24,908 bases of DNA. Source: Nitriliruptoraceae bacterium (GTDB lineage: Bacteria > Actinomycetota > Nitriliruptoria > Nitriliruptorales > Nitriliruptoraceae). A model generated the notes under the pieces. That model was not told the origin of the DNA, searched no databases, and was given only the letters and a program-made list of their open reading frames with translations. The stretch's first letter is position 1. Each line of letters begins with the position of its first letter. The stretch spans positions 1 to 24,908 of the forward strand of contig JBFJMP010000001.1 of the NCBI GenBank assembly GCA_041633895.1. Reading direction: 5' to 3'. The translations under genes and the position numbers were made by a program. Of the stretch, positions 1-22,312 are shown in pieces.

Positions 1-2
1 CG

Positions 3-6000: not shown

Positions 6001-6138
6001 GGCGCTCCCAACTCGTCCGGCGCGTCCCAAACCGCCGACGTGCCATCCATCATGGGGCCCCGGAGCGTCGCGCGCCACCATCCTGTGCGTTGGACCTCCT
6101 AGGGTCCGTCACGTCGGACGTCGCGGAGGGGTTCAGGA

Positions 6139-7284
6139 ATGCAGACGAGACGAATGGCCGTCGCAGCCCTGGTGGGCGCCGTTCTGGCCGCGCCGGGCGT
6201 GGCCTCGGCCGACCCGGCCACGGCCGTGACCCGCTCGGACGCCGACGTCGCGGTCACCAACCCGGGCGACGGCGAGACCTACGACCTCGACGGGTTCGTC
6301 GTGGGACCTGACGGCTGCGAGCCGACGACGGCGATCCTGCTCCTCCACGGGCTGAGTTACACCGGTGAGTCGTGGGACGTCGCCGGGTACTCGTGGACCC
6401 GGATGCTCGCTGCCCGCGGCTACGACGTGTACGCGATCGACCGCCTCGGCTACGGCGACTCGGTCCTCGACGACGGGTACGCCGTGTCCACGCACGGCCA
6501 TGCCGACATGGCGGCGCAGGTCGTGACGCAGTTGACCGAGTCCTACGACGACGTCGTGCTCGCCGGTCACTCGGCGGGGGCCGAGACGGCCATCAGCGCG
6601 GTCGGCATCAACGGGGCGCCCGTCAGCGCGTTGGTGGCGATGGGTTACCACACGTATCCGGACCCGCTGTTCATCGCCAACGACTACGCCCAGAACGAAC
6701 TCGACGCGCTCCAGGACGACTACGTCTACTTCCTGAGCACTCCCGAGCGTCGCGCCGAGATGTTCTACACCGCCGAGAACGCGGACCCCGAGGTCATCGC
6801 CGCCGACACCGCCGCCGCCGTGCTGACCCCGAGTGGCGAGATCATCACGATCACCTACCAGCCGGCCCGCATCGGTTCCGCGCTGGTCGGGGTCCCCACG
6901 ATGCTCCAGCTCGGCGAGGACGACCAGCTGTTCCCGGTCGAGTACGCACCGTTCTGGGAGGCGCAGTTCCTGCTGGCCCCGTCGGTGACGACCGACGTCG
7001 TCCCCGGGTCCGCCCACACCTACATGCTGCACCACGAGGGACCCGCCGCCGCCGAGCGCATGGCCGACTGGATCGGGGGCCCGGCCGGGCTGCCCGGCTG
7101 CGTCGTGCCCACGGGCACCGCGGCACCGACGCCCACACCGGACCCGGCGCCAGCGGATGAGTCGGCCGCGCCCACGACGGCCACCGCCGATCAGGGCTCG
7201 TTGCCGTCGACGGGGTCCGGGGCAGCCGGCGCCGCCCTGGCCGTGCTGATGCTGGGGACGGTCCTGCGTCGTCGCCTGGCCTGA
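6139..7284 (+). CDS. Secreted alpha/beta hydrolase (esterase/lipase-like) with LPSTG sortase-type anchor, 381 aa
   Basis: Signal peptide ending ASA-D; oxyanion LLHG; nucleophile elbow GHSAG; candidate Asp (GEDD) and His (SAHTY); Pro/Thr/Ala linker, LPSTG, hydrophobic stretch and RRR tail. Confidence 0.88.
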   Translation: MQTRRMAVAALVGAVLAAPGVASADPATAVTRSDADVAVTNPGDGETYDLDGFVVGPDGCEPTTAILLLHGLSYTGESWDVAGYSWTRMLAARGYDVYAIDRLGYGDSVLDDGYAVSTHGHADMAAQVVTQLTESYDDVVLAGHSAGAETAISAVGINGAPVSALVAMGYHTYPDPLFIANDYAQNELDALQDDYVYFLSTPERRAEMFYTAENADPEVIAADTAAAVLTPSGEIITITYQPARIGSALVGVPTMLQLGEDDQLFPVEYAPFWEAQFLLAPSVTTDVVPGSAHTYMLHHEGPAAAERMADWIGGPAGLPGCVVPTGTAAPTPTPDPAPADESAAPTTATADQGSLPSTGSGAAGAALAVLMLGTVLRRRLA

Positions 7285-7292
7285 ACCTCCAC

Positions 7293-7309
7293 CTCAAGTT
7301 CTGCTCAAG
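7293..7309 (+). promoter_or_regulatory. Direct-repeat box A: CTCAAG-N5-CTCAAG (OmpR/PhoB-type operator candidate)
   Basis: Perfect hexamers at 7293 and 7304 (11-bp period) in the intergenic region upstream of the stand-alone receiver; -10-like TACCGT at 7347-7352. Confidence 0.65.
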
Positions 7310-7381
7310 GCTCGCCGCGCCCCGACCGCACGATCGGCCGCACCGTTACCGTGGCGGTGATCCTCGACAGACAGCACCGGC

Positions 7382-7813
7382 GTGACCTCAGCAGGCGACA
7401 ACGCGACCCCGAGGGTCGGACTGCGTGTGCTGGTCGCCGAGGACAGCCCGGTCAACCAGATCCTGCTCACGGACTTCCTCGAACTGCGCGGGCACGAGGT
7501 GATCGTCGCTGACGACGGCGCCGAGGCGGTCCGCCTCGCACTCCAGCAGCGCCCCGACGTCATCCTCATGGACGTCCAGATGCCCCAGATGGACGGACTC
7601 GAGGCGACGCGGCGCATCCGTGCGACCGCGGACGGTGCCCACGTCCCGATCATCGCCGTCACGGCCCTCGCCATGGACGGGGACCGGGACCGCTGCCTGG
7701 CGGCCGGCTGCGACGACCACGTCAGCAAACCGATCGACCTGCCGGCGCTGGCCGACCTGGCGGAGCGCCTCGCCGGCCTCCCCCGATCAGGTGGACTCAG
7801 CGACCCGAAGTGA
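7382..7813 (+). CDS. Single-domain response regulator (CheY/DivK-like), 143 aa
   Basis: VLVAEDS..PDVILMDVQMP.MDG..VTALA..DDHVSKP, with phospho-Asp, Thr and Lys intact. Start codon uncertain because the RBS is weak. Confidence 0.9.
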   Translation: MTSAGDNATPRVGLRVLVAEDSPVNQILLTDFLELRGHEVIVADDGAEAVRLALQQRPDVILMDVQMPQMDGLEATRRIRATADGAHVPIIAVTALAMDGDRDRCLAAGCDDHVSKPIDLPALADLAERLAGLPRSGGLSDPK

Positions 7814-10427
7814 AGACCTCGACGCGGGCCCACTCGTCGATCTGGTCGAACTGGCGGTGCAGGTCCGCGACCGTGGTCGCCGCCTGGTCGAGGTCGTGGC
7901 GACGCGCGGACAGCTCCAGATCGCGGCACGTGTCGGCGAACCCTTCGGCTGCCACGTAGCGGCTGCTCCCGGTCAGGCGGTGGGCGATCTGGGCGACCTG
8001 GGCGGCGTCACGGGCCGCGACGGCCTCGTCGAGCGAGCGCATCAACCCACGCGCGTTGTCCAGGAACAGCAACAGCAGGTCACCCAACAGGTCCGTGTGC
8101 TCGTCGCCGTGGAGGGCGGCGAAGGCCGCCGTGTCGATCGGCCCCGACGGCCGGGCGGATCGACGCTCCGGTGTGGCCGCGGATGTCGTCCCGACGCCCG
8201 CCAGCGTCGTCGCCAGCTCCTCGAGTCGGACCGGCTTGCTGATGTAGCCGTCCATGCCCGCAGCGAGGAAGCGCTCACGATCGCCTTCGAGGGCGTTGGC
8301 CGTCAGCGCGACGATCGGTGGGTGGGCCCCGGGTCCCCACTCCTCGCGGATGAGCTGGGTGGCTGTGAGCCCGTCCATCTCCGGCATGTGCACGTCCATG
8401 AGGACCACGTCGTACGAACGCCGACGCAGCGCCTCGATTCCCTCGATCCCGTTGCCGGCGACGTCGGTCACGTGCCCCAGTCGCTCCAGGAGGTGCATCG
8501 CCACCAACTGGTTCACCGGGTCGTCCTCCACGAGGAGCACCCGCAGCGAACGTGCCTGCCCCGGGGGGAGCGCTGCCACCGTGTCGCCCGACGGCATGAC
8601 GACCTCGGACGCGGTCGAGACCTCGAGGTCGAGGTCGAGGCTGAACGTCGTGCCGCGGCCGACCTCACTGTCGACGTCGATCGCACCGCCGAGCGCGGTC
8701 GCGAGTTGCTGGCAGATGGCAAGGCCCAGTCCGGTGCCGCCGTACTTCCGGGACGTGGAAGCGTCCACCTGCGAGAAGGGTCGGAACAGCCGTGCCAGGC
8801 GGTCACTGGGAATCCCGATGCCGGTGTCGGCGACCTCGAACCGGACGGCCTGACGGTCGGTCGCCGCGCCCAACGCCCGGGCACGGACGACCACGGAACC
8901 GGTCGGGGTGAACTTCAGGCCGTTGGCGATCAGGTTGACGATGATCTGTCGGATGCGCGTCTCGTCGCCCACCAGGCTGGGTGCCACGTCCTCGTCGACC
9001 TCCCACCGCAGGTCGAGCGATCGTGCACCTGCGTCCTCGGCGAACAGGGCGATCGTGTCCCGCAGCAGGGCGCGGACGTCGAACGGACGGCTCTCGAGTT
9101 CGAGCTGGCCCGACTCCATGGCCGAGAAGTTCAGGACGTTGTTGATCAGGCCGAGCAAGAGGTTGCCGCTGTTGCGCGCGGTCTCGGCGTAGTGGCGCTG
9201 CTCGGACGACAGTTGCGTGTCCAGCAGCATGCCTGTCAGGCCGATGACGGCGTTCAGCGGTGTCCGGATCTCGTGGCTCATGCTGGCCAGGAAGTCCGCC
9301 TTCTCACGTGCGGTCTCCTCGGCGGACTCCTTCGCACGACGGAGTTCCTCCTCGTCGCGCTTGCGCTCCGTGATGTCGCGCTCGACGGCGATGAAGTTCG
9401 TGACGGCCCCGGCGTCGTCGAGGACGGGCTGCACCTCGACGGCGACCCAGTACGGCTGGCCCGATCGGGTGTAGTTGAGGATCTCGACGTTGAAGCCGTC
9501 GCCCGCCGTCAGGGCCGCCGCCATCTCCGCCACCACGGCCGGGTCCGAATCGGGCCCCTGGAGGAGTTCTCCGGGCTCCTTGCCGACGGACTCCTCGACC
9601 GTGAACTCGGTGACGCGGGTGAACGCGTCGTTGACCCATTCGATGCGCCCCTGCGCGTCGGTGATGACGACCATGTTGTCGGTGGCGCTGGCCACGAGGC
9701 TCAGCTTGCGGAGGTCACGGTTCAGGGCGACCAAGCGGTTTCCCGCATCGGCCCGCTGGCGGTCGAAGCGACGCCAGCCAAGGAAGGCCAACGCCGAGAA
9801 GACCAGCGACCCGGCCAGCACGACGCCCAGGCCGACCAGCATTCGTCGGGCGTCACCGAGCTGCTCGATCGTTGCGCTGTTGGCCTGGCCGGCGTTGCTC
9901 TTGCGGTTGATCTCGGCGCGGGACGCGAGGTCGTTGAAGCGGAGTTCGAGCCCTTCGAGCAGCAGTGCGACACGGGACGGGTCCGCGTCCGGCGTACCCA
10001 CGACGATGGCGCTGACGGCCGGCTCGATGTCGTCGGTCCAGACCTCGGCCAACTCCTGTGCCTCGTCGAGCAACTCCTGCGAACCGAGGGTCTGGAGCTG
10101 GTAGGGCAGGGACACCTCGCGCATCCGCTGGCCGACGAAGCCGCGATGCAGGTCGAGTTCGGCTCGATCGACGGGCTCCTCGCCGACGATGCTTCGTAGG
10201 CGCAGGATCTCGCGCTGGACCTGGCCGAGCGTGCGCACGTTCGCGTCGACGATGTCCTCGGTGACCGAGACGCTGGTCTCGAGGGCACGCGTCTGCGACC
10301 AGAGGGTCACGCCCAGGAACATGGTGGACCCGAGCAGGAGGACGATGGCGACGACCAACGCCACGCGTGCCCGGCGATCGTCCAGTCGGCCTGACCCGGC
10401 GTCGTCGTGCGGGCGAGGTCCCGGCAT
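7797..10427 (-). CDS. Membrane hybrid sensor histidine kinase: TM-helical extracytoplasmic domain-TM-PAS/PAC-HisKA-HATPase-REC-Hpt, 876 aa
   Basis: Two TM helices; PAS; H-box [14 protein letters not shown]; N-box [14 protein letters not shown]; G1 DTGIGI; G2 GGTGLGLAI; [11 protein letters not shown]; Hpt [11 protein letters not shown] 10427 follows GAGGTGGAG. Confidence 0.93.
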
Positions 10428-10432
10428 GCTCG

Positions 10433-11011
10433 TCACTCCACCTCGATCGAGGCGAGTTGCCAGATCCAACGGGCGTCGTAGATCGTGGCGTCGAGGTCAT
10501 GGGCATCGTAGGGATAGACGACACGGACCGGCCCGAATCGGTCCACAGGCATCCGCTCGCCGTCGACCGAGGTTGCGAGCAGGGCGTCGTACACGACGGC
10601 GTCCTCGATCGGGATGTCGACCGCATAGTCGTTCAGCGCGACGGTGTGCAGCATCGTGGCGTCATCGGCGGCGCCGGTCACGGCGAGCACGTCCGCGAGG
10701 CGGACGCCGCGGAAGGTCACGCGACGGCCTTCTGCCTGGTCGTCGTCGACCTCGAACTCGACCAGCCCCAGGGACTCGAGGGACTCGAGGTCGAAGGCCA
10801 CGACGCCATCCGCACCGGACGTGTCGATGCGACCGGACACGGTCAGGACGGTGTCACCGGTCGGCGCGGGGACGCGGTCGCCGGGTACGAGGCTGGCCTC
10901 GGTCACGACCTCGTAGGCCGCGGGCGCTGGCGCATCGGCGTCTTCGGAGCATGCCGACAACGACAGCGCGGCGGTGGCGATCAGCGCGGCGGCGAGCAGG
11001 GTGCGGTTCAT
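10433..11011 (-). CDS. Lipoprotein with molybdopterin-oxidoreductase (SUOX) fold lacking the Moco cysteine; PruR-like ligand-binding protein, 192 aa
   Basis: ATG 11011 after GAGGA; lipobox LSAC; VLTVSG.I..F.GV.L..VL..ALNDY...IP..LLA..DGE.M....GP..VVYP..WQL..IEV pattern; the lipobox Cys is the only Cys; stop lies 5 bp before the kinase start. Confidence 0.8.
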   Translation of the reverse strand: MNRTLLAAALIATAALSLSACSEDADAPAPAAYEVVTEASLVPGDRVPAPTGDTVLTVSGRIDTSGADGVVAFDLESLESLGLVEFEVDDDQAEGRRVTFRGVRLADVLAVTGAADDATMLHTVALNDYAVDIPIEDAVVYDALLATSVDGERMPVDRFGPVRVVYPYDAHDLDATIYDARWIWQLASIEVE

Positions 11012-11065
11012 CGTGGCTTCCTCGTGGGCAACGAGATCACCGTGCCCGGCCATCCCTGCGCTCCC

Positions 11066-11093
11066 CTCACCCAGACCTCAAGTTCACCTCAAG
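11066..11093 (-). promoter_or_regulatory. Direct-repeat box B: three half-sites CTCACC/CTCAAG/CTCAAG (plus-strand reading), upstream of the lipoprotein-kinase operon
   Basis: Hexamers at 11066, 11077 and 11088 (11-bp period); minus-strand -10-like CACGGT at 11044-11039, 32 nt from the 11077 half-site. Confidence 0.7.
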
Positions 11094-11105
11094 GACGGGG
11101 TGCCG

Positions 11106-12566
11106 TCACCCCAGCTCGGCACTGATCGCGGGCAGTCGCGCCCAGAAGCGCGTTCGTCCGTCGTCGGTCCGCCCCGCCCCGACGGTCCCGCCGGCCTCCT
11201 CGACGAGGTGGCGCGCAAGTGCGAGACCGAGGCCGAGGCCATCGTGCTGACCGGTCAGGTCCGACTGGAAGAATCGTTCGAAGATCCGCTCGGCGTCCTC
11301 CGGCGGGAACCCGTCACCGTCGTCGAGCACGGCGACGAGCAGGTCGTCGCCGTCCAGAGCGATGGTCACGTCGACGTGGTCGCCATGGCTGTGCGCGTTC
11401 CCGACGTACTCGTCGAGCACGGCCCGAAGCGGCGTCTGGCGGACCTGGACGGCGTACGGGAGGTCGATGGTCGCCGCAGCGATCACCGCCTGGGCGTCGT
11501 CGCCGACGAACGAGGCGAGCACGCCGGTGGCGGTGTCGGACGCAAGGCGGACGTCCGCGCGGTCTCGCCCCGCGGCGAGGTCGTCCGCGAACGCGAGGAC
11601 GCGCAGCAGCACGTCGTTGAGGCGGGTTGCCGATCGCACGGCGAGTCCACGCAGCGGCTCGTGGGCCGGGTCGATGTCGATCTGTTCCCACATCGTCATG
11701 GCCCCGCCGAGCCCGGTGAGGGGGGTTCGGACCTTGTGCGTGATGGCGCTGATGACGAGGTCGGACACCCGAGACGCACGCCGCTCGTCGGTGATGTCAC
11801 GGATCACGACGACTCGACGATCGCCGGTCACCGACGCCACCGAGGTCTCGATCGTCCGCAGCCACAGCGGGGCGCCGGTCGGACCCGCGTCCCGGTGCAA
11901 CAGGGCGACACGCTCCTCGTCGGCGGCAGGGGCGGCACCGGACCCCGGGAGCGTCCCCTCGAGGAGGTCGAACCCGACCGCTCCGTCGGCGAAGGTGTCG
12001 CCGATGGAGAGCCCCAGCAGCCGATGCGCTGCAGCGTTGACGTCCAGGCAGCCACCCTGAGGACCCACGACGACCACGCCGTCGCCGATTCGGCCGGTGA
12101 CCGCTTCCAACTCGCGGCGTTCGACCAGGGCCATGCGCGCCCGCGCCAGTCGACTCAGCGACCGGACACGCGCCTTCAGTTCGACGGGGTCGACTGGCTT
12201 GGCCAGCAAGTCGTCGGCGCCTGCCTCGAGCGCGCGGATCCGCGCCTCGCGGTCGCCGGCGGCCGTGAGGAAGACCAGCGGCAGGTGCCGCCACTCGACG
12301 TGGGTACGGACGCGATCACACAGGACGAAGCCGTCGTCACCCGGCATCATGACGTCGGACAGGATCACGTCCGGGCGACCGCCGTCCTCGAGCCACGCGA
12401 CGGCCTCACGCACGGACGTCACGCTGTGGACATCCATGTCGCTGGCCAGCAGATGGCCCTCGACCACGGCGACCGCGACCGGATCGTCGTCCACGACCAG
12501 GACGGTCAACGGGTCCGCCCCGTCGATCAGGTCCAGGGTGGGCTCGGTCATCGTCATGGTGTCCAT
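11106..12566 (-). CDS. Soluble REC-PAS-HisKA-HATPase histidine kinase with atypical H-box, 486 aa
   Basis: N-terminal PleD-like REC (VDDD..ILSDVMMP..FLTA..AKP); PAS-like region; H-box ITHKVRTPLTG; N-box YVGNAHSH; G1 DDGDGF; G2 GLGLGLA. ATG 12566 follows GAGG. Confidence 0.88.
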   Translation of the reverse strand: MDTMTMTEPTLDLIDGADPLTVLVVDDDPVAVAVVEGHLLASDMDVHSVTSVREAVAWLEDGGRPDVILSDVMMPGDDGFVLCDRVRTHVEWRHLPLVFLTAAGDREARIRALEAGADDLLAKPVDPVELKARVRSLSRLARARMALVERRELEAVTGRIGDGVVVVGPQGGCLDVNAAAHRLLGLSIGDTFADGAVGFDLLEGTLPGSGAAPAADEERVALLHRDAGPTGAPLWLRTIETSVASVTGDRRVVVIRDITDERRASRVSDLVISAITHKVRTPLTGLGGAMTMWEQIDIDPAHEPLRGLAVRSATRLNDVLLRVLAFADDLAAGRDRADVRLASDTATGVLASFVGDDAQAVIAAATIDLPYAVQVRQTPLRAVLDEYVGNAHSHGDHVDVTIALDGDDLLVAVLDDGDGFPPEDAERIFERFFQSDLTGQHDGLGLGLALARHLVEEAGGTVGAGRTDDGRTRFWARLPAISAELG

Positions 12567-12652
12567 GCTATGCCTCGCAGGAACGGGAGCGGGGGCTGTC
12601 GGGGTGACTTCTGCACTGTGACGTGCGAGTCCTGCCACGAGGTCGCCGGCAC

Positions 12653-12669
12653 CTCACGATCCCCTCAAG
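12653..12669. promoter_or_regulatory. Direct-repeat box C: CTCACG-N5-CTCAAG in the divergent promoter region between the kinase and the OmpR regulator
   Basis: Hexamers at 12653 and 12664; minus-strand -10-like CACAGT at 12620-12615 (32-nt gap); plus-strand -10-like TACGCT at 12718-12723. Confidence 0.65.
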
Positions 12670-12746
12670 GAGTGCATGGCGTCGCGATTCGTGCCGCTTG
12701 CCGGGAGGCCCGTGGCATACGCTCTCCACGTCGAAGAGGAGTTCCG

Positions 12747-13448
12747 GTGCCGACGAAGTCCGCGACCGTCGTCGTGATCGAGGATGCGCCAGAGATCCGG
12801 ATCCTCCTCGAGGACCTCCTGGCCAACGAGGGGTTCCGCGTCATCGCGACGGACAATGGCGAGGACGGCGTCGACCTGGTCGTCCAGGAGGACGCTGACC
12901 TCGTGGTGCTGGACCTGGTGCTGCCGGGCATCGACGGCTTCGAAGCGTGTCGTCGCATCCGTGAGCAGTCGGATGCCTACGTGGTCATGCTCACCTCGAA
13001 GGATGCCGAGATCGACAAGGTCGTCGGCCTCACCGTGGGCGCCGACGACTACGTGACCAAGCCGTTCTCCCCGCCGGAACTGGTCGCGCGGCTGCGAGCC
13101 ATGCTGCGGAGGCCACGCGCGGATGAGGGCAGCGACAGCCTGCGTCAGCACGGCGACCTCGCGATCGACCCGGATGCCCGCGAGGTGCGCGTCGCCGACC
13201 AACCCGTCGAGCTGACGCGGATCGAGTTCGACCTGTTGGAGGCGTTGACCGACAACCCCCGCCAGGTGAAGACCCGCGAGCAGTTGTTGAACCGCATCTG
13301 GGGACCCGGCTGGGTCGGTGAGGACCACCTCGTCGACGTCCACATGTCGAAGTTGCGTCGCAAGCTCGGCGACGACGCACGCACCCAGCGCTACGTGGTG
13401 ACCGTCCGGGGCGTCGGTTACCGGATGGGCGACCCGGCCGCGATGTAG
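12747..13448 (+). CDS. OmpR/PhoB-family response regulator (REC plus winged helix), 233 aa
   Basis: GTG 12747 after GAGGAG; VIED..VVLDLVLPGIDG..MLTSKD..GADDYVTKPF; wHTH LTRIEFDLL..VDVHMSKLRRKL..TVRGVGY. Confidence 0.95.
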   Translation: MPTKSATVVVIEDAPEIRILLEDLLANEGFRVIATDNGEDGVDLVVQEDADLVVLDLVLPGIDGFEACRRIREQSDAYVVMLTSKDAEIDKVVGLTVGADDYVTKPFSPPELVARLRAMLRRPRADEGSDSLRQHGDLAIDPDAREVRVADQPVELTRIEFDLLEALTDNPRQVKTREQLLNRIWGPGWVGEDHLVDVHMSKLRRKLGDDARTQRYVVTVRGVGYRMGDPAAM

Positions 13449-16111
13449 GCGCGCATGGCGGCGCTGGCCGCAGCCGCGCCGGTCCGCAGTGCGGCCACCC
13501 GTTCGCGGTGTCCGTCAGCGGTCGGGTTGGGTTCTGCCTCGACGGCCGCTGCGGCGTCGCCGAGCGCGGCCGCTCCGAGCGTGCGCGCGCTGCCCTTGAG
13601 CCGATGGGCGGCCTGGCGAACCGCTTCCTCGTCGTCGGACTCGCCGATCGTGGTGACGAGGCCGTCGATGGCCTCGAGGAAGGCGGACACGGCACGCTGG
13701 ACCGGCTCGCTGCGCCCACCCATCTCCTGCGTGAGCGCGCCCAGCGCCGCCGCGATGGACTCGGACACCAGGCGATCCGCCTTGGCCTGCTCGGCGTCCG
13801 TGTCCTCCGCGGTCGGCTCGGTGCGACGGGCCGTGGCGACCGCGACGGCCAGGTCGTCCAGCGCCACCGGCTTCGTGAGGTAGCCGTCCATGCCGGCGTC
13901 CAAGCAGCGTTGGCGGTCCTCAACGGTCGCCGCCGCCGTGAGGGCGATGATCGGCACGTCGCGCTCAGGGCCGGCCAGGCCTCGGATCGTCTCGGCAGCC
14001 TCGGGACCGTCCATCCGGGCGAGGTGGCGGTCCATCAACACCACGTCGATGCCGCCCTCCCGGACCCGCTCCACGGCGAGGTCCCCGTCGACGACCACGG
14101 TGACGTCGTGGCCGATTCGGTCGAGCTGCATGCGCAGGACCGTCCCGACCATCTCGTCGTCCTCGACCACGAGGACGCGACGACGTTCCCCTGGTGCGTC
14201 GGCATCCACCACGTCCGCTCCTGTGTCCACCCCGGCTGCAGCCCTCACGTCCAGCGGGAGGTCGATGACGAACACGGCACCGGACTGCGAGGGCTCCAGG
14301 GCAATCGTGCCACCGAGTTCGACGGCGAGCCGCGAGGTGATCGCCAGACCGAGGCCCGTCCCGCGCACCTGCCGAGGTCGTACCTGGGTGAAGGGCTCGA
14401 AGATGTCGTCACGACGGTCCGCCGGGATCCCCGGCCCGGTGTCCTCCACGCGGAACTGGACGGTGCCCGTCCCGTCGCGCGACGAATCCACGGTGACCTC
14501 GATCCACCCGCTTGGGGTGAACTTCACCGCGTTGCCGATCACGTTGACCAGGATCTGGCGCAGTCGCCGGGCATCGGCGACCACGGACCGCGGGACGCCG
14601 GGAGACACGGTGAGCCGAAGCTCGAGGTCCTTGTCCTGGGCCTCGATCGCGAACAGGCCCAGGGTGTCCTGGGCGATGCCCACCGGGTCGACCCCGTCCT
14701 CGACGAACAGGTCCGCGTGTCCGGACTCCAGCCGTGCGAAGTCCAGCACGCTGTCGACGAGGTGACGCAGCGAGGTCGCCGAGGTCTGCATGACCTGGAG
14801 CAGACGCCGGTGGGCGGGTTCGAGGTCCTCCCCACCGAGCAACTCGACGGCACCGACCAGCGAGTGCAGGGGCGTTCGGAGTTCATGGCTCACGGTGGCG
14901 ACGAACTCGGACTTGAGTTCGGACGCGCGAATGGCGGCGTCGCGGGCCGCCCCGGCCTGGACCTGCACCTCACGACGTCGGGTGATGTCGCGGTACAGCC
15001 AGAGGTGGCCGCGATAGGAGCCGTCGACGTGGACGGGTGTGTAGCTGCGTTCGAGGCAGCGCCCGTCGGCCATCTCGAGCTCCTCGTCCTGGACGGGCAC
15101 GCGCTCGGTGAGGATCTCGTCCACGCGCGCGACGAATCCCCCTGGGTCCGCGAAGAGGTGCTGGGCCTGTTCGGCCGCGCGAGAGCAGTCCTCGCCCTCG
15201 AGTTCGGCCGGGCTCGCGGGGATGCCGAAGAGGTCGGTCATCGCCTCGTTCGTCACGACGATGCGTCGGTCCTCGTCCTCGAGGAGCACGGCGTCGTGCA
15301 TGGACTTGATCAAGCCGGTCAGCCGGGCACTGAGGGTCTGCAAGCTCAGGAGCGAGTCGCGCTCACTCGTGATGTCCGTGAAGGTCGTGACCACCGCGTG
15401 CGGACGGTCGTGCCCGTGGCGCAGGAGCGGCCGCGCGTTGACCCGCAGCCACCGCAGTGTCCCATCCGGACGATGGATGCCCAGGGTCTCCCCCAGGACC
15501 GGTTCGCCCGCGCGCAGTGCCCGCATGGCGGGGTGGTCGTGTCCCGGGAGGTCCTTGCCGGCCATGTCCACGGTGCCCCACCGCGGGTCGTTCGACGAAC
15601 GCCCGTTCATCTGGTCGGCACTCAGGCCGAGGATCCGTTCGGCCGACGCGTTGCAGGCCAGGACCTCGCCGGTGGCCGCCTGTAGCACCACGCCCTGTTC
15701 GAGGGCCGCGACCACGGCCTCGTACCTCTGCTCGAGGTCGCTGCCCGAGGCCCTGTCCACCGGGAGGAAGACCCCGCCCTCCAACGTGATGATCGTCCAC
15801 GGGTGGTCGAGCACGCGGAAGCCGCCGATCGCCGTGGCGCGTTCGGGCGCGTTCGGGTCACGGGCTGGCACCACGAACCGGTCGAGGTCGCTCTCGCCAC
15901 TGCTGGTGACCGCCGCCGCCAGGTCGGGGGCGCCGAGTCGCTCGCTCAGGCGGGTGAGGTCGACACCGACGGCCAGGGCCGGATCGTCGGCTGCCCACTG
16001 CTCCCATCGGGGGTTGACCCGGAGCACATGGCCGTCGTCGTGGACCACGGCGGCCCGTAGGGCGACGTGCGCGAACACGTCGACGGGCCCGGGCTCAGGT
16101 CCTGCATCCAT
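13418..16111 (-). CDS. Soluble hybrid sensor histidine kinase: PAS x3-HisKA-HATPase-REC-Hpt, 897 aa
   Basis: ATG 16111 after GGAG; no TM helix; PAS repeats ending DIT; H-box VSHELRTPLHS; N-box NVIGNAVKFT; G1 DTGPGI; G2 GTGLGLAI; REC VLMDRHL; Hpt AHRLKGSA. Confidence 0.92.
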   Translation of the reverse strand: MDAGPEPGPVDVFAHVALRAAVVHDDGHVLRVNPRWEQWAADDPALAVGVDLTRLSERLGAPDLAAAVTSSGESDLDRFVVPARDPNAPERATAIGGFRVLDHPWTIITLEGGVFLPVDRASGSDLEQRYEAVVAALEQGVVLQAATGEVLACNASAERILGLSADQMNGRSSNDPRWGTVDMAGKDLPGHDHPAMRALRAGEPVLGETLGIHRPDGTLRWLRVNARPLLRHGHDRPHAVVTTFTDITSERDSLLSLQTLSARLTGLIKSMHDAVLLEDEDRRIVVTNEAMTDLFGIPASPAELEGEDCSRAAEQAQHLFADPGGFVARVDEILTERVPVQDEELEMADGRCLERSYTPVHVDGSYRGHLWLYRDITRRREVQVQAGAARDAAIRASELKSEFVATVSHELRTPLHSLVGAVELLGGEDLEPAHRRLLQVMQTSATSLRHLVDSVLDFARLESGHADLFVEDGVDPVGIAQDTLGLFAIEAQDKDLELRLTVSPGVPRSVVADARRLRQILVNVIGNAVKFTPSGWIEVTVDSSRDGTGTVQFRVEDTGPGIPADRRDDIFEPFTQVRPRQVRGTGLGLAITSRLAVELGGTIALEPSQSGAVFVIDLPLDVRAAAGVDTGADVVDADAPGERRRVLVVEDDEMVGTVLRMQLDRIGHDVTVVVDGDLAVERVREGGIDVVLMDRHLARMDGPEAAETIRGLAGPERDVPIIALTAAATVEDRQRCLDAGMDGYLTKPVALDDLAVAVATARRTEPTAEDTDAEQAKADRLVSESIAAALGALTQEMGGRSEPVQRAVSAFLEAIDGLVTTIGESDDEEAVRQAAHRLKGSARTLGAAALGDAAAAVEAEPNPTADGHRERVAALRTGAAAASAAMRAYIAAGSPIR

Positions 16112-16167
16112 GGATTCAACTCCGACGGCACGAACAGTAGGAGGTTGCACGCCGACCCGTCCCGCGT

Positions 16168-16560
16168 TCAGGACCGGCCGTACTGGTCCTCGAACCGTTC
16201 GATGTCGTCCTCGTCGAACGTCCCGAAGGCGATCTCGAGGAAGCGTGCGCGTCGGCCGACGCACGACACGCGGTGTCGGGTTCCGCGCGGGATCCAGATC
16301 TCGTCGCCCTCGGCGGCGCGGATGACCTCGTCGCCGACCTCGGCCACCAGGCCGTCGTCGAGCGCCACCCACAGTTCGTCACGGTGTTCGTGGCGTTGGA
16401 GGCTGAGGCTCTGTCCGGGTTCGACGGTGATCAGCTTGACCGTCGACACCTCGTTGAAGCTGTAGCGGCTGAAGCCTCCCCAGGGGCGGCGATCTGACAC
16501 GACCTCGACGCGTGGGTCGCGGCGTGCATCGAGGACCTGGGTGTGGTTGGTGTTCGTCAT
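16168..16560 (-). CDS. Stand-alone cupin, mannose-6-phosphate isomerase type II C-terminal-like, 130 aa
   Basis: RRPWGGF..VKLITVEPGQSLSLQRHEHRDELWV..IPRGTRHR..FLEI..EDDIERFEDQYGR matches the PMI domain of bifunctional ManC-type proteins. Confidence 0.85.
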   Translation of the reverse strand: MTNTNHTQVLDARRDPRVEVVSDRRPWGGFSRYSFNEVSTVKLITVEPGQSLSLQRHEHRDELWVALDDGLVAEVGDEVIRAAEGDEIWIPRGTRHRVSCVGRRARFLEIAFGTFDEDDIERFEDQYGRS

Positions 16561-16597
16561 CGTGAAGCCTCCGGTTTCCGGCCGTGGTGGTCCTGCA

Positions 16598-16634
16598 GCG
16601 GGCGACGACGGGGCCAGGTTCCGCCGTCGCCCGC
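16598..16634 (-). terminator. 14-bp stem-loop 12 nt downstream of the GT4 stop
   Basis: Minus-strand RNA GCGGGCGACGGCGG pairs with CCGUCGUCGCCCGC around a 9-nt loop; the single DNA mismatch is a G-U wobble only on the minus strand; no U-tract. Confidence 0.6.
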
Positions 16635-16646
16635 CTGACACCGTCC

Positions 16647-17819
16647 TCAGACGGTGAGCAGGAAGTCGATGTGCTCCAGGTACCAGTCCGCCACGTCCTC
16701 CATGGGGAGGCCGGCGGCGACGGCGTGGTTGCGCAGCCCCTGCGCCACGCGACGGGTGTCGTCGGACAGCAGGCGGTTGATCGCCGCTGCGAGGGACTCG
16801 GGGTCGGCTGGGTCGAACCACTCGGCGACGTAGCCCTCGGCCTCGACGAGGCGACGGAAGTCACCGATGTCCGGCATGACCAGCGCGCGGGAGTAGCTCG
16901 CAGCCTGATGGACGACGCCGGAGCTGCCGGTCGTCGCGACGTAGGGGAACACGGCGACGGTGGCGTCCCGGAAGACATCCGGGACGTCCTCCTCCGCCAC
17001 GTAGCCCGTGAACCGCACCGGATCCCCGGCGTAGGCGTCGCGGACGCGCTCCAGGTAGCCGGGTGCGTTCGGACTGTCCGTCCCCGCGACGACGACCTCG
17101 ACCGCGTGCTTCGCGGACAGGATGCGCGCGGCGTCGAGCAGGGGCTCGACCTGCTTGTACGTCCCGAACTTCCCGAAGGCCATGAGCTGCGCCGGGCCCG
17201 GAGGCACCGACGTGTCGGACTCCAGCGGCACGTCGAAGGTCCCGTGGGGGATCACCGCGACGTTGTCCGCCCCGTACTTCTCACGCAGGACGGTGACGTA
17301 CTGCGGCATGGTGACCGCGACGAGGTCCGCCTTGAGCACGAGCCAGGTCACGATCGTCCCTGCGAGCCGGATGATCCGTTCCACGAGGCGGCTGGTGCCG
17401 AAGCCCGCGCCCTCGAGGTCGATCGTCTCCATGATGTTGTGCAGGAGGACGACGCTGCGGGTGCCGGTCCCGCGGACCAGCAGGGGTGCGAGCAGTCCGA
17501 GTGCGGCGGCGACCCGGCGGTCACCGAAGGTCGCGAACTGGACGTTGAAGATGGCGACGTCCACGTCCTCGCGGACCACGGCCCGGCGGATCCGCCACGC
17601 GCTCCGCAGGGAGTTGAACCTCCAGCAGTCGACGAAGCGCGTGTGCGGCAGGTCGGGGTAGTGCTCGCCGTCCGGGAGGGTGTCGCCGAAGACGACCACC
17701 TCGTCGACCTCCTCCTTGAGGGCGAGCGAGCGGACCAGGTGCAGGCCGTACTCGTTGAGGGTCCCCGTGGACGGGGGGTGCGGCGTGATGACGCCGATGC
17801 GAAGGTTCGTGTCATGCAT
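16647..17819 (-). CDS. Glycosyltransferase family 4 (GT-B), 390 aa
   Basis: GTLNEYG..VAVIPHG..FGKFGTYK..FTGYVAEEDV..VFPY.ATTGSSGVV; overlaps the upstream GT2 stop (ATGCATGA). Confidence 0.9.
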   Translation of the reverse strand: MHDTNLRIGVITPHPPSTGTLNEYGLHLVRSLALKEEVDEVVVFGDTLPDGEHYPDLPHTRFVDCWRFNSLRSAWRIRRAVVREDVDVAIFNVQFATFGDRRVAAALGLLAPLLVRGTGTRSVVLLHNIMETIDLEGAGFGTSRLVERIIRLAGTIVTWLVLKADLVAVTMPQYVTVLREKYGADNVAVIPHGTFDVPLESDTSVPPGPAQLMAFGKFGTYKQVEPLLDAARILSAKHAVEVVVAGTDSPNAPGYLERVRDAYAGDPVRFTGYVAEEDVPDVFRDATVAVFPYVATTGSSGVVHQAASYSRALVMPDIGDFRRLVEAEGYVAEWFDPADPESLAAAINRLLSDDTRRVAQGLRNHAVAAGLPMEDVADWYLEHIDFLLTV

Positions 17820-18591
17820 GTGCGTACACCCCTTGGGCGTCGTTGCGGCGGATGACGCGGAGGTCGCGCAGGAAGCGCACCACCTCGCGTGAGGTGTCCA
17901 CCTTCGACCCGGGTGCGTCGATCCATTCGACCGGCACCTCGGCGACCTCCATGCCCAGGCGGGCCGCGAGGTAGAGCACCTCGAGGTCGAAGGAGAAGCC
18001 CTCGATCGTCTGGGCGGCGAACAGCCGCTGGGCGGCCGCTCGGGTGAACAGCTTGAAGCCGCACTGCGTGTCGGACAGGTCCAGACGCATGGCGCGCCGG
18101 ATCAGGGCACGGCTGGTGGCGCTGACGAGGCGTCGCGCGGCCGAGCGGTTGGCCTCGGTGGCGCCGTCGGCGGCGCGCGAGCCCACCGCGACGTCGAAGC
18201 CCTCGTCGAGGGCTGCCATCAGTCGGTCGAGTTCCTCGATGGGTGTCGACTGGTCGGCGTCGGCGAACAGGACGCGGTCGCCCCGTGCGGCGAGCATGCC
18301 ACGGCGGACGGCGTCGCCCTTGCCCGTGTTCGCCTCGGCGGACAGCACGCGGACGTTCGCCAGGCCCAACCGGTGGACGCGGTCGACGGTGTCGTCAGAC
18401 GATCCGTCGTCGGAGACGAGCAACTCCCACGGTCGGCCGTCACAGACATGGGCCGCGATGGCTCCGATCGTCGGGACGATCCGATCGCGCTCGTTGTACG
18501 CGGGGACGACCACCGACAGGACGGGATGGTCGACGGGTTCGCGTTGCCAACGCTCGAAGGCGTCGAGGACACCTGGCGTGTCGCTGTACAT
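17812..18591 (-). CDS. Glycosyltransferase family 2, polyprenyl/dolichyl-phosphate hexosyltransferase-like, 259 aa
   Basis: SVVVPAYNE..VSDDGSSD..NTGKGDAVRRG..FADAD..VGSR..DTQCGFKLF..FSFDLE..EVPVEW. Confidence 0.9.
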   Translation of the reverse strand: MYSDTPGVLDAFERWQREPVDHPVLSVVVPAYNERDRIVPTIGAIAAHVCDGRPWELLVSDDGSSDDTVDRVHRLGLANVRVLSAEANTGKGDAVRRGMLAARGDRVLFADADQSTPIEELDRLMAALDEGFDVAVGSRAADGATEANRSAARRLVSATSRALIRRAMRLDLSDTQCGFKLFTRAAAQRLFAAQTIEGFSFDLEVLYLAARLGMEVAEVPVEWIDAPGSKVDTSREVVRFLRDLRVIRRNDAQGVYAHA

Positions 18592-18606
18592 GAGGTTGCC
18601 TCTGGG

Positions 18607-19902
18607 TCAGGCCGTCGCTGAGGCGACGGTTCGGGTGGGACGGGTTGCCGGACGGGGTGCCGGTGTGGAGCGGGGACGGAACGCCCGGACCGCGATCAGG
18701 AGCACGGCCATGACGGCCACCTGGACATCGACGACGCGAGCCAGGTCGGCGCGCACGGCGATCACGGCCGCCAACTGGAGGCCGGCGCCCCCGAGCAGCA
18801 ACCAGGTCGCTCGGTACTCGCCGCGGGCCAACTGGTGGTTGGCCACGACGATGACGAGGGAGAACAGGACGGTGGCCATCGTGTAGCGCCACAGCAGGGG
18901 TTCGACGGCGGCGTACGCGTCGCCGAACAGGACCCCGACGACGAGGGACGGCGCGATGGCGGTGACCGCGACCGCGACGGCTCCGATCGCCGCGGTCGCA
19001 GCCAGCGCACGACGTACGACCGCGTTCTCGCGGCCGCCCTCGTGGAACTCGCGGGCAGCAAGGGGGAAGGCGACCTCGACGAGCGACCAGGTCACGTAGA
19101 AGACCGCGCGACCCACCAGGGCCAGCGCCGCGTACTGACCGGCAACCGCCGGGGAGACGGACGCCTTGACGACGAGCACGTCGCTGTTGGCGACCACGAT
19201 CTGGCCGAGGAGCAGGACGAGCGACGGTCCCAGCATGCGCTGCGCTGCCCGTCGGATGGACTGGTCGGTCACGGCCTGGACGACGGGGATCGAACGGTCG
19301 CGGGCGACGAGTCCGGCCGCGACGAAGCTGAGGGAGATCGCCGCGACGGCGCCCAGGACGCCCGCACCGAGGGCGACGAGGACGACGCCGACCACGAGAC
19401 GCACCCCCATCTCGACCACGTTCACGATCGCGAGGCGCCGGAAGCCGGCGCGTCCCTGGAGGAAGCCACGGTCGGCACCCAGCACGACGAAGAACGGCAA
19501 GCCGACGCCGAAGACGACGTAGGGCAGCGTCGAAGGGCTGTTGAACACGACCTGCCACACCGGGGCGCCGGCGGCGAGGACCACGCCCGCGACTGCCCCG
19601 GCCACCGCTGCCCGCCGACGCAACCATCCGTGGAGGTCGCGGGCGGCGTCGACGCCACGAGTGACGTCGAGCTCGGCGGTCGCCCTGGCGGCCACCAACT
19701 GCACCGTGTGCGTGACGACCGTCAGCATGAGCAACAGCGTCACGACGAGGTTCAGTTCGGCGAAGGACGACGGCCCCAGCATCCGGCTGAGGACGACGTT
19801 GAAGAGGTAGTTCCCGGCGTGGACCAGCACGGCCGTGACCAGGAACGCGGCCTCGCCGCCAGCACGCACGCCCGTGGGGCGTGCCTCGATCGCGGTGGTC
19901 AC
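18607..19902 (-). CDS. Wzx/MATE-like oligosaccharide flippase, 431 aa
   Basis: About 12 hydrophobic helices; GNYLFNVVLSRMLGP..F; RGFLQG..F; SDVLVVK..AGQYAA..VGR. GTG start overlaps the STAS stop (GTGA). Confidence 0.87.
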   Translation of the reverse strand: MTTAIEARPTGVRAGGEAAFLVTAVLVHAGNYLFNVVLSRMLGPSSFAELNLVVTLLLMLTVVTHTVQLVAARATAELDVTRGVDAARDLHGWLRRRAAVAGAVAGVVLAAGAPVWQVVFNSPSTLPYVVFGVGLPFFVVLGADRGFLQGRAGFRRLAIVNVVEMGVRLVVGVVLVALGAGVLGAVAAISLSFVAAGLVARDRSIPVVQAVTDQSIRRAAQRMLGPSLVLLLGQIVVANSDVLVVKASVSPAVAGQYAALALVGRAVFYVTWSLVEVAFPLAAREFHEGGRENAVVRRALAATAAIGAVAVAVTAIAPSLVVGVLFGDAYAAVEPLLWRYTMATVLFSLVIVVANHQLARGEYRATWLLLGGAGLQLAAVIAVRADLARVVDVQVAVMAVLLIAVRAFRPRSTPAPRPATRPTRTVASATA

Positions 19903-20216
19903 GCCAGCTCCGGCGCAGCCAGGTCGAACAGCTGGGCGAAGCGCGTGACCGCCAGCGTGTGGCGGACGCTCGGGGCGAGGGCCCCACAGATCGTGACCTC
20001 GACGCCGAGGGCGCGCAGGCGGCGGCGGGCGCCGACGATGCTGGACAGGCCAGCCGCGTCCATCTCGGTGACGGCCGACAGGTCGACGATCACACGCTCG
20101 GCGTGGATGCCGGCATCGAGGACGTGACCTCGGATCGTCGGGGCCGTCAGGGCGTCGAGACGACCCTCCGGGCGCAGGCGAAGGACGCGGATGCGCGTGA
20201 CGGTCGCGGCGCTCAT
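19899..20216 (-). CDS. STAS-domain protein (anti-anti-sigma fold) lacking the phospho-Ser, 105 aa
   Basis: GRLDA..VIVDLSAVTEMDAAGL; ATGA coupling to the upstream STAS gene. Confidence 0.85.
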   Translation of the reverse strand: MSAATVTRIRVLRLRPEGRLDALTAPTIRGHVLDAGIHAERVIVDLSAVTEMDAAGLSSIVGARRRLRALGVEVTICGALAPSVRHTLAVTRFAQLFDLAAPELA

Positions 20217-20557
20217 GCGGCCACCGCCACGCCCACGGAGGCGGGCGCCATCGGCGCGAAGTCCGTGACCATCCCGGCGCGGTGCGCCAGGTCCATGATG
20301 ATCGTCGCGGCACGGCTGGCCCGCGTGATCCGAAGGCTGCCACCGGACTCCGTCATGCGACGGCCGCGTTCGGCGAGCAGGCCGAGGGCGGCCCCGTCGA
20401 GGAAGCGGACATCGGCGAGGTCGAGCTCGACGTCGGTGCCGGTCGCGGCCAGGCCGTCGAAGGCCCCGGCCGCGTCAGCGATCTCGTGGGCGTCGAAGCG
20501 ACCGGCCAGTGCCAGTCGGCGACCGGTGCGGTTGATGGTGAGGTTTCGGCGGCGCAT
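20213..20557 (-). CDS. STAS-domain protein lacking the phospho-Ser, 114 aa
   Basis: LAGRFDA..VELDLADVRFLDGAALGLL..GGSLRI; AGGA upstream of the ATG. Confidence 0.85.
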   Translation of the reverse strand: MRRRNLTINRTGRRLALAGRFDAHEIADAAGAFDGLAATGTDVELDLADVRFLDGAALGLLAERGRRMTESGGSLRITRASRAATIIMDLAHRAGMVTDFAPMAPASVGVAVAA

Positions 20558-20625
20558 GTTCGTGGTCCTGTTGAGGTGACAGGTAGGACGCTACGAACCG
20601 GACCTTGCGGCCCCCTCGGGGCAGT

Positions 20626-20663
20626 CTCAAGGTCCTCTGACCGAACCTCAACGACGCCTCAAG
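20626..20663 (-). promoter_or_regulatory. Direct-repeat box D: CTCAAG/CTGACC/CTCAAC/CTCAAG (plus-strand reading), upstream of the STAS-flippase-GT operon
   Basis: Half-sites at 20626, 20637, 20647 and 20658 (spacings 11, 10, 11); minus-strand -10-like TAGCGT at 20593-20588, 32 nt from the 20626 half-site; partly overlaps the GH stop at 20648. Confidence 0.65.
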
Positions 20664-22312
20664 AACGACGTGCGCATGCGCCTCGGGATCGCGACCGACG
20701 CAACCGACACGACCACCAGCACGCCGAGGAGGAGGCGCCAGAACGGCTTCGCGAGGCGCAGGTCGACCGCGCCGGGCCGGGCGACTGCGGCCAGGTCCGC
20801 GTCCTCACCGACCACGGCGGCGGCAGGCTTCAAGGTGCCGTCCGCGCGGATCAGGCCCAGCGACGTCTCGGCGCCGACACGCCACGGGGACGACCCGGCG
20901 TCCGGCGGCGGCGTCGCGAGGTCGTGCAGGGTCCAGACCAGCGTTCCGGCGATACCCACCTCGTCGGCGACGGTGCGGATGTCCGCGATGTAGGCCGCCT
21001 GCTCGGCGTCGCCGTGACCGCCGGGCAGGAGGGTGTTCCACGTCGGCAGGCCGTACTCGCCCAGCACCACGGGGCGCGGACCGGCCGAGGCGATCACGGC
21101 GCTGGCTGCCTCGCGCAGCTCCGCGGGCGTGCCGTAGTGGTGGAAGGTGACGACCTCGACCACGTCGAGCAGGTCGGTCGCGCTGGAGGCAGAAGCCCAA
21201 CCGATGGTGCGGGGCGTCTCCGCGTCGAGCGACCGGACGGTGCTGCCCACGTGGCGCAGCCACGCGCGGACGGCCGCGGCGCCCTCGACCTCGTCGTCAC
21301 GGTCCGCTTCGTTCTTCAGGTCCCACGCAACGAGGGCGGGATGGCCGGCAAGGGTCGGCACGACCACGGCGAGGTGGCGGTCGGCATCGGGCCACGACTC
21401 GACCGCACGGTTCGTCCACCCGTCGAAGAGGGTGGGGACCACGCCGATGCCGCGCGCCTCGGCCAGGTCGAGGTAGGACACGACGTGGTCCAGCAGCACA
21501 GGGTCCGGGGCCGGGCCACCGAGTTCGAGATACGGCAGGAACACGCGCACCGTGTCCATGCCGAGGTCGCGCACGGCGTCGAGGTCGGCGGCCGCGACCG
21601 CGGGGTCGAACGCCATCCAGGTGTCGCCCCACGGCGTCGCCTGCGGGAGGTGGTTCACGCCCGTCCACGACGCGTCGGCGGGCGCGTACGCCGACGCGTC
21701 GCCCACCAGCGTGTCGGGCAGGACGTCCTCGCGGATGAGCTGTTCCACGCGCCACCGCCCGTCGCGCAGGAGCAGGACCGCGCCCCACGACTCGACGGTC
21801 TCGATGTGGACGGCGCCCCCGGCGCCCTCAGCCACCCGCACGAGCCGGAGACCGTGGTCGCGAAGCTCGATGATCGAGCCGTCGTCCGAGTAGAACTCGA
21901 TCTGCAGGTCATGGGCCACCGGGACCTGGCGAACGACGCCGGACGTCTCCCCCAGCACGTCCTCGACCTGCGTCAGGGCTGCCCCGCTCCACGACGTGAC
22001 GAGGTCCGTCGGGTCGTCCGAGCGCAGCGCGGTGTCGAGCCGGGCGAAGGCACCGACCCATGCCGCCTCGACGGCGACGCGGGTGGCCGGTTCGACGTCT
22101 CGCGGGCTCGGGACGTCGGGGCGCCAGTCGACGACGGGGTCGATTCCGACCGGGACGTCGGGCACCTCGTTGAAGGCGTCGGCCGGCGAGGCCCCGGTCA
22201 GGAACGCGCGATGCAGGCCGGTCGCCCACACGATGGCGCCGGCGAGGCCGAGGACCGCGATCCCGAGCAGGATGCTGGCGAGGAGGAGCTTGACGCGGTT
22301 GCGGTCCGTCAT
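20648..22312 (-). CDS. Membrane-anchored clan GH-A glycoside hydrolase (GH5/GH2-like, beta-mannanase/cellulase type), 554 aa
   Basis: GVNHLP..W..DL..MDTVRVFL..VPTLFD..AWDLKNE (acid/base)..TFHHY..VLGEYG (nucleophile)..WTLHD; hydrophobic helices at both termini; ATGA overlap with the upstream gene. Confidence 0.85.
   Translation of the reverse strand: MTDRNRVKLLLASILLGIAVLGLAGAIVWATGLHRAFLTGASPADAFNEVPDVPVGIDPVVDWRPDVPSPRDVEPATRVAVEAAWVGAFARLDTALRSDDPTDLVTSWSGAALTQVEDVLGETSGVVRQVPVAHDLQIEFYSDDGSIIELRDHGLRLVRVAEGAGGAVHIETVESWGAVLLLRDGRWRVEQLIREDVLPDTLVGDASAYAPADASWTGVNHLPQATPWGDTWMAFDPAVAAADLDAVRDLGMDTVRVFLPYLELGGPAPDPVLLDHVVSYLDLAEARGIGVVPTLFDGWTNRAVESWPDADRHLAVVVPTLAGHPALVAWDLKNEADRDDEVEGAAAVRAWLRHVGSTVRSLDAETPRTIGWASASSATDLLDVVEVVTFHHYGTPAELREAASAVIASAGPRPVVLGEYGLPTWNTLLPGGHGDAEQAAYIADIRTVADEVGIAGTLVWTLHDLATPPPDAGSSPWRVGAETSLGLIRADGTLKPAAAVVGEDADLAAVARPGAVDLRLAKPFWRLLLGVLVVVSVASVAIPRRMRTSFLRRR

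Follow-up and report, generated by a model that had tools for sequence, protein, structure and literature searches.

The binding of tandem DNA repeats by winged-helix response regulators is already well known. At the ompF and ompC promoters of Escherichia coli, OmpR occupies arrays (F1–F3 and C1–C3) of 20-base-pair (bp) sites. Each of these is a tandem pair of half-sites; the site closest to the promoter has its end near −40, and occupancy follows a hierarchy in which strong sites precede weak ones. The PHO box unit of Streptomyces PhoP is of the GTTCACC type. In Streptomyces coelicolor, PhoP, a member of the OmpR/PhoB family, is reported to bind tandem direct repeats of 11 nucleotides (nt), with a number of units that varies per promoter (PMC2275107). 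In the Salmonella PhoP regulon, boxes lie at fixed, helically phased distances from the −10 element, and direct and reverse boxes form distinct architectures, the reverse boxes 30–58 nt upstream of the −10 element and the direct boxes 12 or 21–23 nt from it (PMC3335776). Here, we describe a tandem box of 11-bp units that recurs at four places (S1 to S4) in a 24,908-nt stretch of DNA from a Nitriliruptoraceae bacterium (assembly GCA_041633895.1, contig JBFJMP010000001.1, positions 1 to 24,908; hereafter the window), together with the regulator that probably binds it.

The evidence that this box is a functional, conserved cis-element is very strong. We consider it likely that the boxes are operators of the orphan OmpR/PhoB-family regulator encoded at 12747–13448, which would receive phosphate from hybrid kinases with Hpt domains and would probably act as an activator. 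The identity of the binder, the sign of regulation and the path of the phosphate are all three inferred.

With the PHO boxes of S. coelicolor, the element shares its tandem 11-nt direct repeat units and an actinobacterial OmpR/PhoB-family regulator (PMC2275107). It differs from them in its unit, which is CTTGAGG, in its regulator, which is not PhoP, and in its targets, which form a small clustered island of signalling and glycan genes instead of a regulon of phosphate metabolism. From the OmpR arrays of ompF and ompC it differs in consensus and organism, and a site has 2–4 half-sites here versus six there. Its forward class, with a gap of 30 nt to the −10, and a tentative reversed class, with 37–39 or 48 nt, resemble the phased architectures of Salmonella PhoP (PMC3335776); unlike the direct boxes of that regulon, the strong pair here stands three helical turns off, with only a degenerate unit in between, and the positions here are predicted. 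RegX3 and MtrA of Mycobacterium tuberculosis have the same domain architecture as the regulator, which is nevertheless an orphan among hybrid kinases and not part of a response regulator–histidine kinase pair, and which falls below the cut-off of the MtrA model.

The window is contig C1 of an assembly of 2.94 megabases (Mb) in 586 contigs, with 71% guanine plus cytosine and an estimated completeness of 76%. Sequencing runs that contain its DNA are marine metagenomes, and its nearest relatives are metagenome-assembled genomes (MAGs) of Actinomycetota; the source organism is an uncultured marine actinobacterium.

Tandem Boxes in the Window and in the Assembly

An earlier note on this DNA, made from the sequence alone, had drawn attention to a CTCAAG hexamer repeated with an 11-bp period at the four sites. 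On both strands together the hexamer occurs 12 times in the window, against 4.7 ± 2.2 expected, and none of 100 shuffles reached 12. All seven plus-strand copies (7293, 7304, 11077, 11088, 12664, 20626 and 20658) fall within the four sites, as had been claimed, and the remaining five are minus-strand copies elsewhere. The degenerate half-sites that the note had added are also present (CTCACC at 11066, CTCACG at 12653, CTGACC at 20637 and CTCAAC at 20647). Each site thus holds 2–4 units in register at 11-bp spacing, as direct and not inverted repeats; that the units all point the same way, which had likewise been noticed, is explained by the fact that nearly all genes of the island lie on the minus strand.

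The exact pair CTCAAG-N5-CTCAAG has three copies in the assembly, two in the window and one on contig C430, while at other spacings from 7 to 20 there is just one pair, at spacing 9. The C430 copy reveals a longer consensus, ACCTCAAGnTCnCCTCAAGG. With a weight matrix, this 20-bp box is found seven times in the assembly at 21 bits or more and never in the reversed-genome control. A matrix built from the sites of other genomes only ranks the same seven at the top (20.9–32.1 bits), with a control maximum of 18.3 bits. Four of the seven boxes lie in the window, two on C430, in a divergent region and mutually inverted, and one on contig C263. The window ends within the C-terminal part of a protein (X) whose N-terminus is encoded on C430, so that C430 continues the window after about 1.5 kilobases (kb) of unassembled DNA, and six of the seven boxes therefore belong to one island of about 30 kb. 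The idea of a local regulon holds in that the set is small, clustered and largely local, as it also is in the genomes G040 and G023; it has to be widened in that two boxes on C430 and one on C263 lie beyond the window.

Within the class, the exact pair is present in 3 of 143 genomes, and near-exact boxes, clustered and 3–4 in each genome, occur in G040 (97% complete) and G023 (92% complete). Full-text searches of the literature on this motif and on the MprA box gave no relevant description.

Spacing Between the Box and a Predicted −10 Element

In the direction of the gene, the box reads CCTTGAGG-N3-CTTGAGG(T/A), often with a degenerate unit such as GGTGAG or CGTGAG 11 bp further on. At the promoters of STAS genes an additional good unit stands 21 bp past the second one, a layout (11 + 21) that the window shares unchanged with the related loci L183 and L190/L207.

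The earlier note had also described minus-strand −10-like hexamers at S2, S3 and S4. All three (CACGGT, CACAGT and TAGCGT) are present, in each case at a distance of 32 nt from where a CTCAAG-type unit starts; in this order, they precede the start codons ATG 11011, 12566 and 20557 by 27, 48 and 30 nt, as had been stated. This spacing rule was examined on 22 non-redundant sites from eight genomes, of which the 18 outside the window form an independent test. Of the 22 sites, 13 have an nA-N3-T hexamer whose start follows the 20-bp box by 31 nt, and in three others this offset is 52 nt (P = 9e-17), the longer offset occurring where two extra units follow the box. Every other offset is seen in at most three sites, with a background frequency of 0.022 per offset. 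Among the non-window sites alone, the counts are 11 of 18 at 31 nt and 2 of 18 at 52 nt (P = 1e-14). The phased hexamers (CACGGT, CACAGT, TAGCGT, TACGGT, TAGGGT, CATCGT, GACAGT and others) would be weak −10 elements, and nothing resembling a −35 element was found 17 nt upstream of them. With the hexamer placed at −12 to −7, a spacing of 31 nt would put the strong pair at about −62 to −43, and the weak unit would reach to about −33. Transcription starts are predicted near 11032, 12608 and 20581 on the minus strand and, tentatively, near 7359 and 12730 on the plus strand.

Three of the four window sites (11075, 12651 and 20645) thus fit one promoter architecture. With its direct repeats, a regulator encoded alongside and a fixed helical phase to the predicted −10, the element behaves like an operator of the OmpR/PhoB type.

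Some features of individual sites deserve mention. At its distal end, the 20645–20664 box extends into the final codons of the gene upstream. For the REC-kinase behind S3, a start at GTG 12638 was rejected, since the −10 would then fall within the gene and the length of the orthologue favours ATG 12566; from this ATG the protein has 486 amino acids, compared with 487 for the L190 orthologue. In the STAS 5′ leader (20570–20580), a single reversed half-site, GTCACCTCAAC, is found between the −10 and the ATG, with conserved counterparts in L183 (GTCACCTCGAC), L190 (GTCATCAAC) and G040 (GTCAAC). Its role may be that of a leader element or of a second site for binding. The two boxes of C430 (L001) serve one gene each of a divergent pair, namely the minus-strand gene X and a plus-strand gene for a GAF-PAS-HisKA-HATPase kinase, and the X promoter looks leaderless, with its ATG 7 nt after TACGGT. 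The sole box off the island, on C263 (L002), lies 78 nt before the gene of a secreted CAP/SCP-domain protein, and its hexamer at +31 is GACACA, without the final T.

Conservation in Relatives

A protein-guided search of GTDB representatives and JGI metagenome contigs gave only regulator relatives of at most 60% identity, without the box; closer orthologous loci were obtained from a large protein collection and its contigs. The unpublished genomes G028, G032 and G033 contribute to none of the claims made here. In P0005 (L183; regulator 70% identical), a box comes after the regulator, and STAS-STAS-flippase-GT2-GT1 genes come after the box. The window STAS2 and flippase proteins match those of L183 at 57–58%, and the flippases of L183 and L207 match Polysacc_synt_3. 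A second, forward box of P0005 (L183b) precedes a gene 52% identical to the window receiver. In P0006 (L190; regulator 65% identical), one box heads an X-Y-Z-regulator operon, another stands directly after the regulator and before genes of a REC-PAS kinase and a GAF-PAS kinase, and a third precedes the STAS operon. G023, from the same species group, has additional boxes before GT2-GT1 and before an Oxidored_molyb lipoprotein with a hybrid kinase; this last pair (L207 6854–9720, box at L207 6830) is the counterpart of the window S2 operon. In G040, which belongs to another family and has a regulator 55% identical, a box follows the regulator and precedes a STAS gene, and another precedes X; as in L190, the regulator is the last gene of the X-Y-Z operon.

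Four target classes are kept in 2–4 genomes each (GCA_041631995, GCA_041628775/G023 and G040): the STAS-flippase-GT operon, the Mo-oxidoreductase-like lipoprotein with hybrid kinase, the REC-kinase and the X-Y-Z envelope operon. At orthologous promoters the boxes are 65–80% identical and the spacers 23–48%, while random DNA of this composition would give about 29% by calculation. The retention of the box that the earlier note had proposed to look for is thus seen at the STAS-flippase-GT, lipoprotein-hybrid kinase and REC-kinase promoters, with spacers near random.

As a separate observation, contig C5 of G040 (L208 5455–12110) has three boxes within 5 kb, before a Peptidase_M73 gene, a 925-amino-acid lipoprotein-hybrid kinase and a REC-EAL protein; given the last of these, the regulon there reaches cyclic di-GMP turnover.

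The OmpR-Family Regulator as the Probable Binding Protein

The regulator encoded between S3 and the second hybrid kinase has the recognition helix HLVDVHMSKLRRKL and is the sole winged-helix regulator of the assembly with that helix. It scores below the cut-off for all 25 NCBIfam equivalog families (best MtrA, 217.5 bits versus 300) and is therefore placed in no named family; its best PDB sequence matches are RegX3 (E = 3.5e-51) and MtrA (8.4e-49) of M. tuberculosis. The lineages that carry the box (the window, P0005, P0006, G040, P0009 and P0025) share the helix HL[VIL][DE]VH[MVI]SKLRRKL. More distant orthologues from G021, G004 and G018 (50–53% identity) have the helix HVVAVHIANLRRKL and variant tandem boxes (CTTGACG..CTTGATG and CTTGAGC..CTTGAAC) upstream of operons that include the regulator, again with nA-N3-T at 31–32; the first gene of the G004 operon encodes a multicopper oxidase. 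The box thus travels with one OmpR-family regulator lineage sharing a recognition helix. In 2.16 Mb of DNA around paralogues of the regulator no box of at least 22 bits was found, the best hits reaching 21.5 bits and having no phased −10. The proposal of the earlier note that this regulator binds the boxes gains from the co-occurrence with orthologues and from the lack of such boxes around paralogues; binding itself we infer, and the evidence for the local regulator as the binder is good, if circumstantial. A different pair, CTTCAGG-N4-CTTCAGG at C392 2818–2837, adjoins another OmpR-family regulator, with the helix NLVEVHVSALRRKL, and may be the own operator of that paralogue.

Several observations weigh against regulation of these promoters by the local regulator. 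SKLRRKL helices pair with CTTGAGG, and ANLRRKL helices with CTTGACG, CTTGATG or CTTGAAC, but helix and box both track phylogeny, so that the pairing is not independent proof. On the short contigs of three lineages with this type of helix, a strong box is absent: in P0014/P0020 (12.6 and 3.3 kb) the sole match is weak and reversed (12.8 bits), and P0084 (5.3 kb) and P0003 (3 kb) have none. The regulator gene was not found in the G023 assembly despite its boxes, and is present in a sister assembly. As the assembly studied here is 76% complete, another regulator could be missing from it. The minus strand at S1 has neither nA-N3-T at +31 (CGTCCC) nor a gene downstream, and S3, oriented for the REC-kinase, likewise stands in reverse to the gene of the regulator itself. 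No RNA run containing the locus turned up, the search returning only marine metagenome DNA runs, and activation is favoured only because the −10 is weak and the −35 missing.

Incompleteness of the assembly, the boxes of G023 and the same-helix lineages without strong boxes on their contigs would suit a real operator bound by a different transcription factor, winged-helix or unrelated, from the unassembled quarter of the genome, with the local regulator a mere neighbour. The box, however, abuts an orthologue of the regulator in L183, L190 and G040, that is, in two families; this OmpR-family regulator is the sole DNA-binding gene common to these box loci; and the four other winged-helix regulators of the assembly have different recognition helices. 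We regard a different binder as unlikely.

Reversed Boxes and a Possible Second Architecture

Other lineages (L211a, L215 and L209/L218) also have boxes in reversed orientation ahead of genes, 107–116 nt before the start codon. Of six reversed sites, five, S1 with its TACCGT at 7347 included, have nA-N3-T 37–39 nt from the box edge, an interval that was chosen after the data had been seen and that draws on few independent lineages. Tentatively, reversed boxes may be a second promoter architecture.

Two further claims of the earlier note concern reversed boxes. Control of the stand-alone receiver by S1 loses support from the reversed orientation and the absent phased −10; it stays plausible through the tentative reversed architecture and because the L183 orthologue of the receiver has a forward box. 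Autoregulation of the regulator through the 12651 box is uncertain, since this box faces the divergent REC-kinase gene; relatives would achieve autoregulation differently, with the regulator gene at the end of a box-headed operon.

Proposed Mechanism and the Sign of Regulation

In the mechanism we propose for the local regulator, hybrid kinases with Hpt domains would hand phosphate to it, and the phosphorylated protein would sit head-to-tail on the tandem 11-bp units (CCTTGAGG-N3-CTTGAGG toward the gene). Where the spacing is standard, a gap of 30 nt would separate the strong pair from a weak −10 (nA-N3-T) downstream, and the degenerate third unit would extend toward the −35 position, which has no visible −35 hexamer; from there the bound regulator would recruit RNA polymerase. 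The STAS-flippase-GT2-GT1 operon and the X-Y-Z envelope operon would thereby be switched on, as would several of the sensors of the pathway itself (lipoprotein and hybrid kinase, REC-kinase and GAF-PAS kinase), which would create positive feedback. Judged from promoter weakness, activation is the most likely sign of regulation.

The same regulator could also be mainly a repressor or roadblock, or act with opposite signs at forward and reversed boxes, its phosphorylated form silencing the island. OmpR-family proteins repress at some promoters; S1, without a phased −10, lies 7 nt past the stop codon of the convergent hydrolase gene; and the single reversed half-site between the −10 and the ATG of the STAS leader is conserved in relatives. 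Forward boxes, on the other hand, stop short of the core promoter, 30 nt before the −10, and a missing −35 with a weak −10 is the usual signature of activator dependence, so that we find this reading quite improbable. Least credible, and in our view very nearly negligible, are promoter elements of an alternative sigma factor (partner-switching would suit the STAS genes, STAS proteins being classically anti-sigma antagonists, as would a motif at a fixed distance from a −10-like hexamer) and a mobile or structural repeat without regulatory role: the number of units (2–4, in tandem) and their distance (an end 30 nt before the −10) are unlike those of a −35 element, no sigma or anti-sigma gene occurs at any of the loci, the flanks of the boxes lack mutual similarity, an Rfam scan of the window gave no match, and the sites are few and all adjoin gene starts or ends.

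Gene Layout of the Window

Table 1. Coordinates of boxes, predicted −10 elements and genes (window positions unless a locus is named).
Feature	Position	Strand	Details
Macro-domain protein	75-548		no box
Fused PafB/PafC-like protein	583-2445		two WYL stretches, HTH_PafC, WCX; no box
MMPL transporter	3691-6081		no box
Alpha/beta hydrolase	6139-7284	+	
Box S1	7291-7310	reversed relative to receiver 7382(+)	two exact CTCAAG units 11 bp apart; 31.4 bits
Candidate −10 TACCGT, receiver gene (tentative)	7347-7352	+	37 nt from reversed-box edge
Stand-alone receiver (REC) protein	7382-7813	+	Pfam Response_reg, 1e-28
Hybrid histidine kinase PAS-HisKA-HATPase-REC-Hpt	7797-10469	-	gene 2 of S2 operon; domain search
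Secreted Oxidored_molyb-like protein	10433-11011	-	gene 1 behind S2; Pfam PF00174, 5e-11
−10-like CACGGT	11039-11044	-	starts 31 nt after 20-bp box S2
Box S2	11066-11094	-	exact units 11077 and 11088, weak promoter-proximal unit 11066 (GGTGAG toward gene); 33.2 bits
REC-HATPase kinase	11106-12566	-	target of S3; domain search
−10-like CACAGT	12615-12620	-	starts 31 nt after box S3
Box S3	12651-12670	-	CTCACG + CTCAAG, between divergent REC-kinase and regulator; 28.6 bits
Candidate −10 TACGCT, regulator gene (tentative)	12718-12723	+	48 nt (37+11) from reversed-box edge
OmpR/PhoB-family response regulator	12747-13448	+	REC + winged helix; Pfam PF00072 + PF00486
Second hybrid histidine kinase PAS-PAS-HisKA-HATPase-REC-Hpt	13418-16372	-	domain search
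STAS-STAS-flippase-GT2-GT1 operon	16647-20557	-	behind S4
GT1	16647-17819	-	S4 operon
GT2	17812-18591	-	S4 operon
Flippase-like membrane protein	from 18607	-	S4 operon
STAS2	19899-20216	-	S4 operon
STAS1	20213-20557	-	S4 operon
−10-like TAGCGT	20588-20593	-	52 nt (31+21) after strong pair, 32 nt after unit 20626
Box S4	20626-20664	-	four units: 20658 and 20647 strong, 20637 weak, 20626 exact
X-Y-Z envelope operon	20648-24908	-	three genes; homology
Z	~20648-22312	-	
Y	~22309-23530	-	
X, C-terminal part	23535-24908	-	
X, N-terminus	C430 (L001) 2-454	-	
C430 boxes	L001 497-516, 531-550		inverted, divergent pair
C263 box	L002 3346-3365		28 bits
Variant boxes	L203 1475-1494 (G021); L204 12501-12520 (G004); L205 9076-9095 (G018)		upstream of operons including regulator
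Reversed boxes	L211 4607-4626, 8442-8472; L215 2555-2585; L209 624-643; L218 123-142		

Box S1 begins 7 nt past the hydrolase stop codon. The second hybrid kinase lies on the same strand as the glycan genes and downstream of them. At the right end, an open reading frame of 765 amino acids (20648–22945, minus strand) really comprises two genes, Z and, in another frame, Y. Protein X has about 1070 amino acids with a weak PMT_2 match and is split between the window end and C430, where its promoter also bears a box. In the left part of the window, the genes of the PafB/PafC-like protein, the MMPL transporter and the macro-domain protein are without a box.

Implications

A broader picture can be sketched, which we hold as doubtful: a compact, self-amplifying phosphorelay island conserved across families of an uncultured marine class of actinobacteria, in which one orphan regulator, supplied by several hybrid kinases, would turn on nearly all of its own upstream sensors, a tandem-STAS operon for envelope glycans and a second envelope-glycan operon, through two promoter grammars (forward boxes 30 nt and reversed boxes 37 or 48 nt from the −10), as an all-or-none switch of surface remodelling.

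For an uncharacterised regulator lineage of unculturable organisms, the analysis provides a testable regulon with a 20-bp operator, predicted −10 elements and a short list of conserved targets, made up of surface-glycan synthesis genes and the pathway's own sensors. It also illustrates that a small clustered regulon is recoverable from one fragmented MAG and a handful of related contigs. The arrangement of forward and reversed boxes could help to study the activation geometries of OmpR-family regulators in high-GC Gram-positive bacteria.

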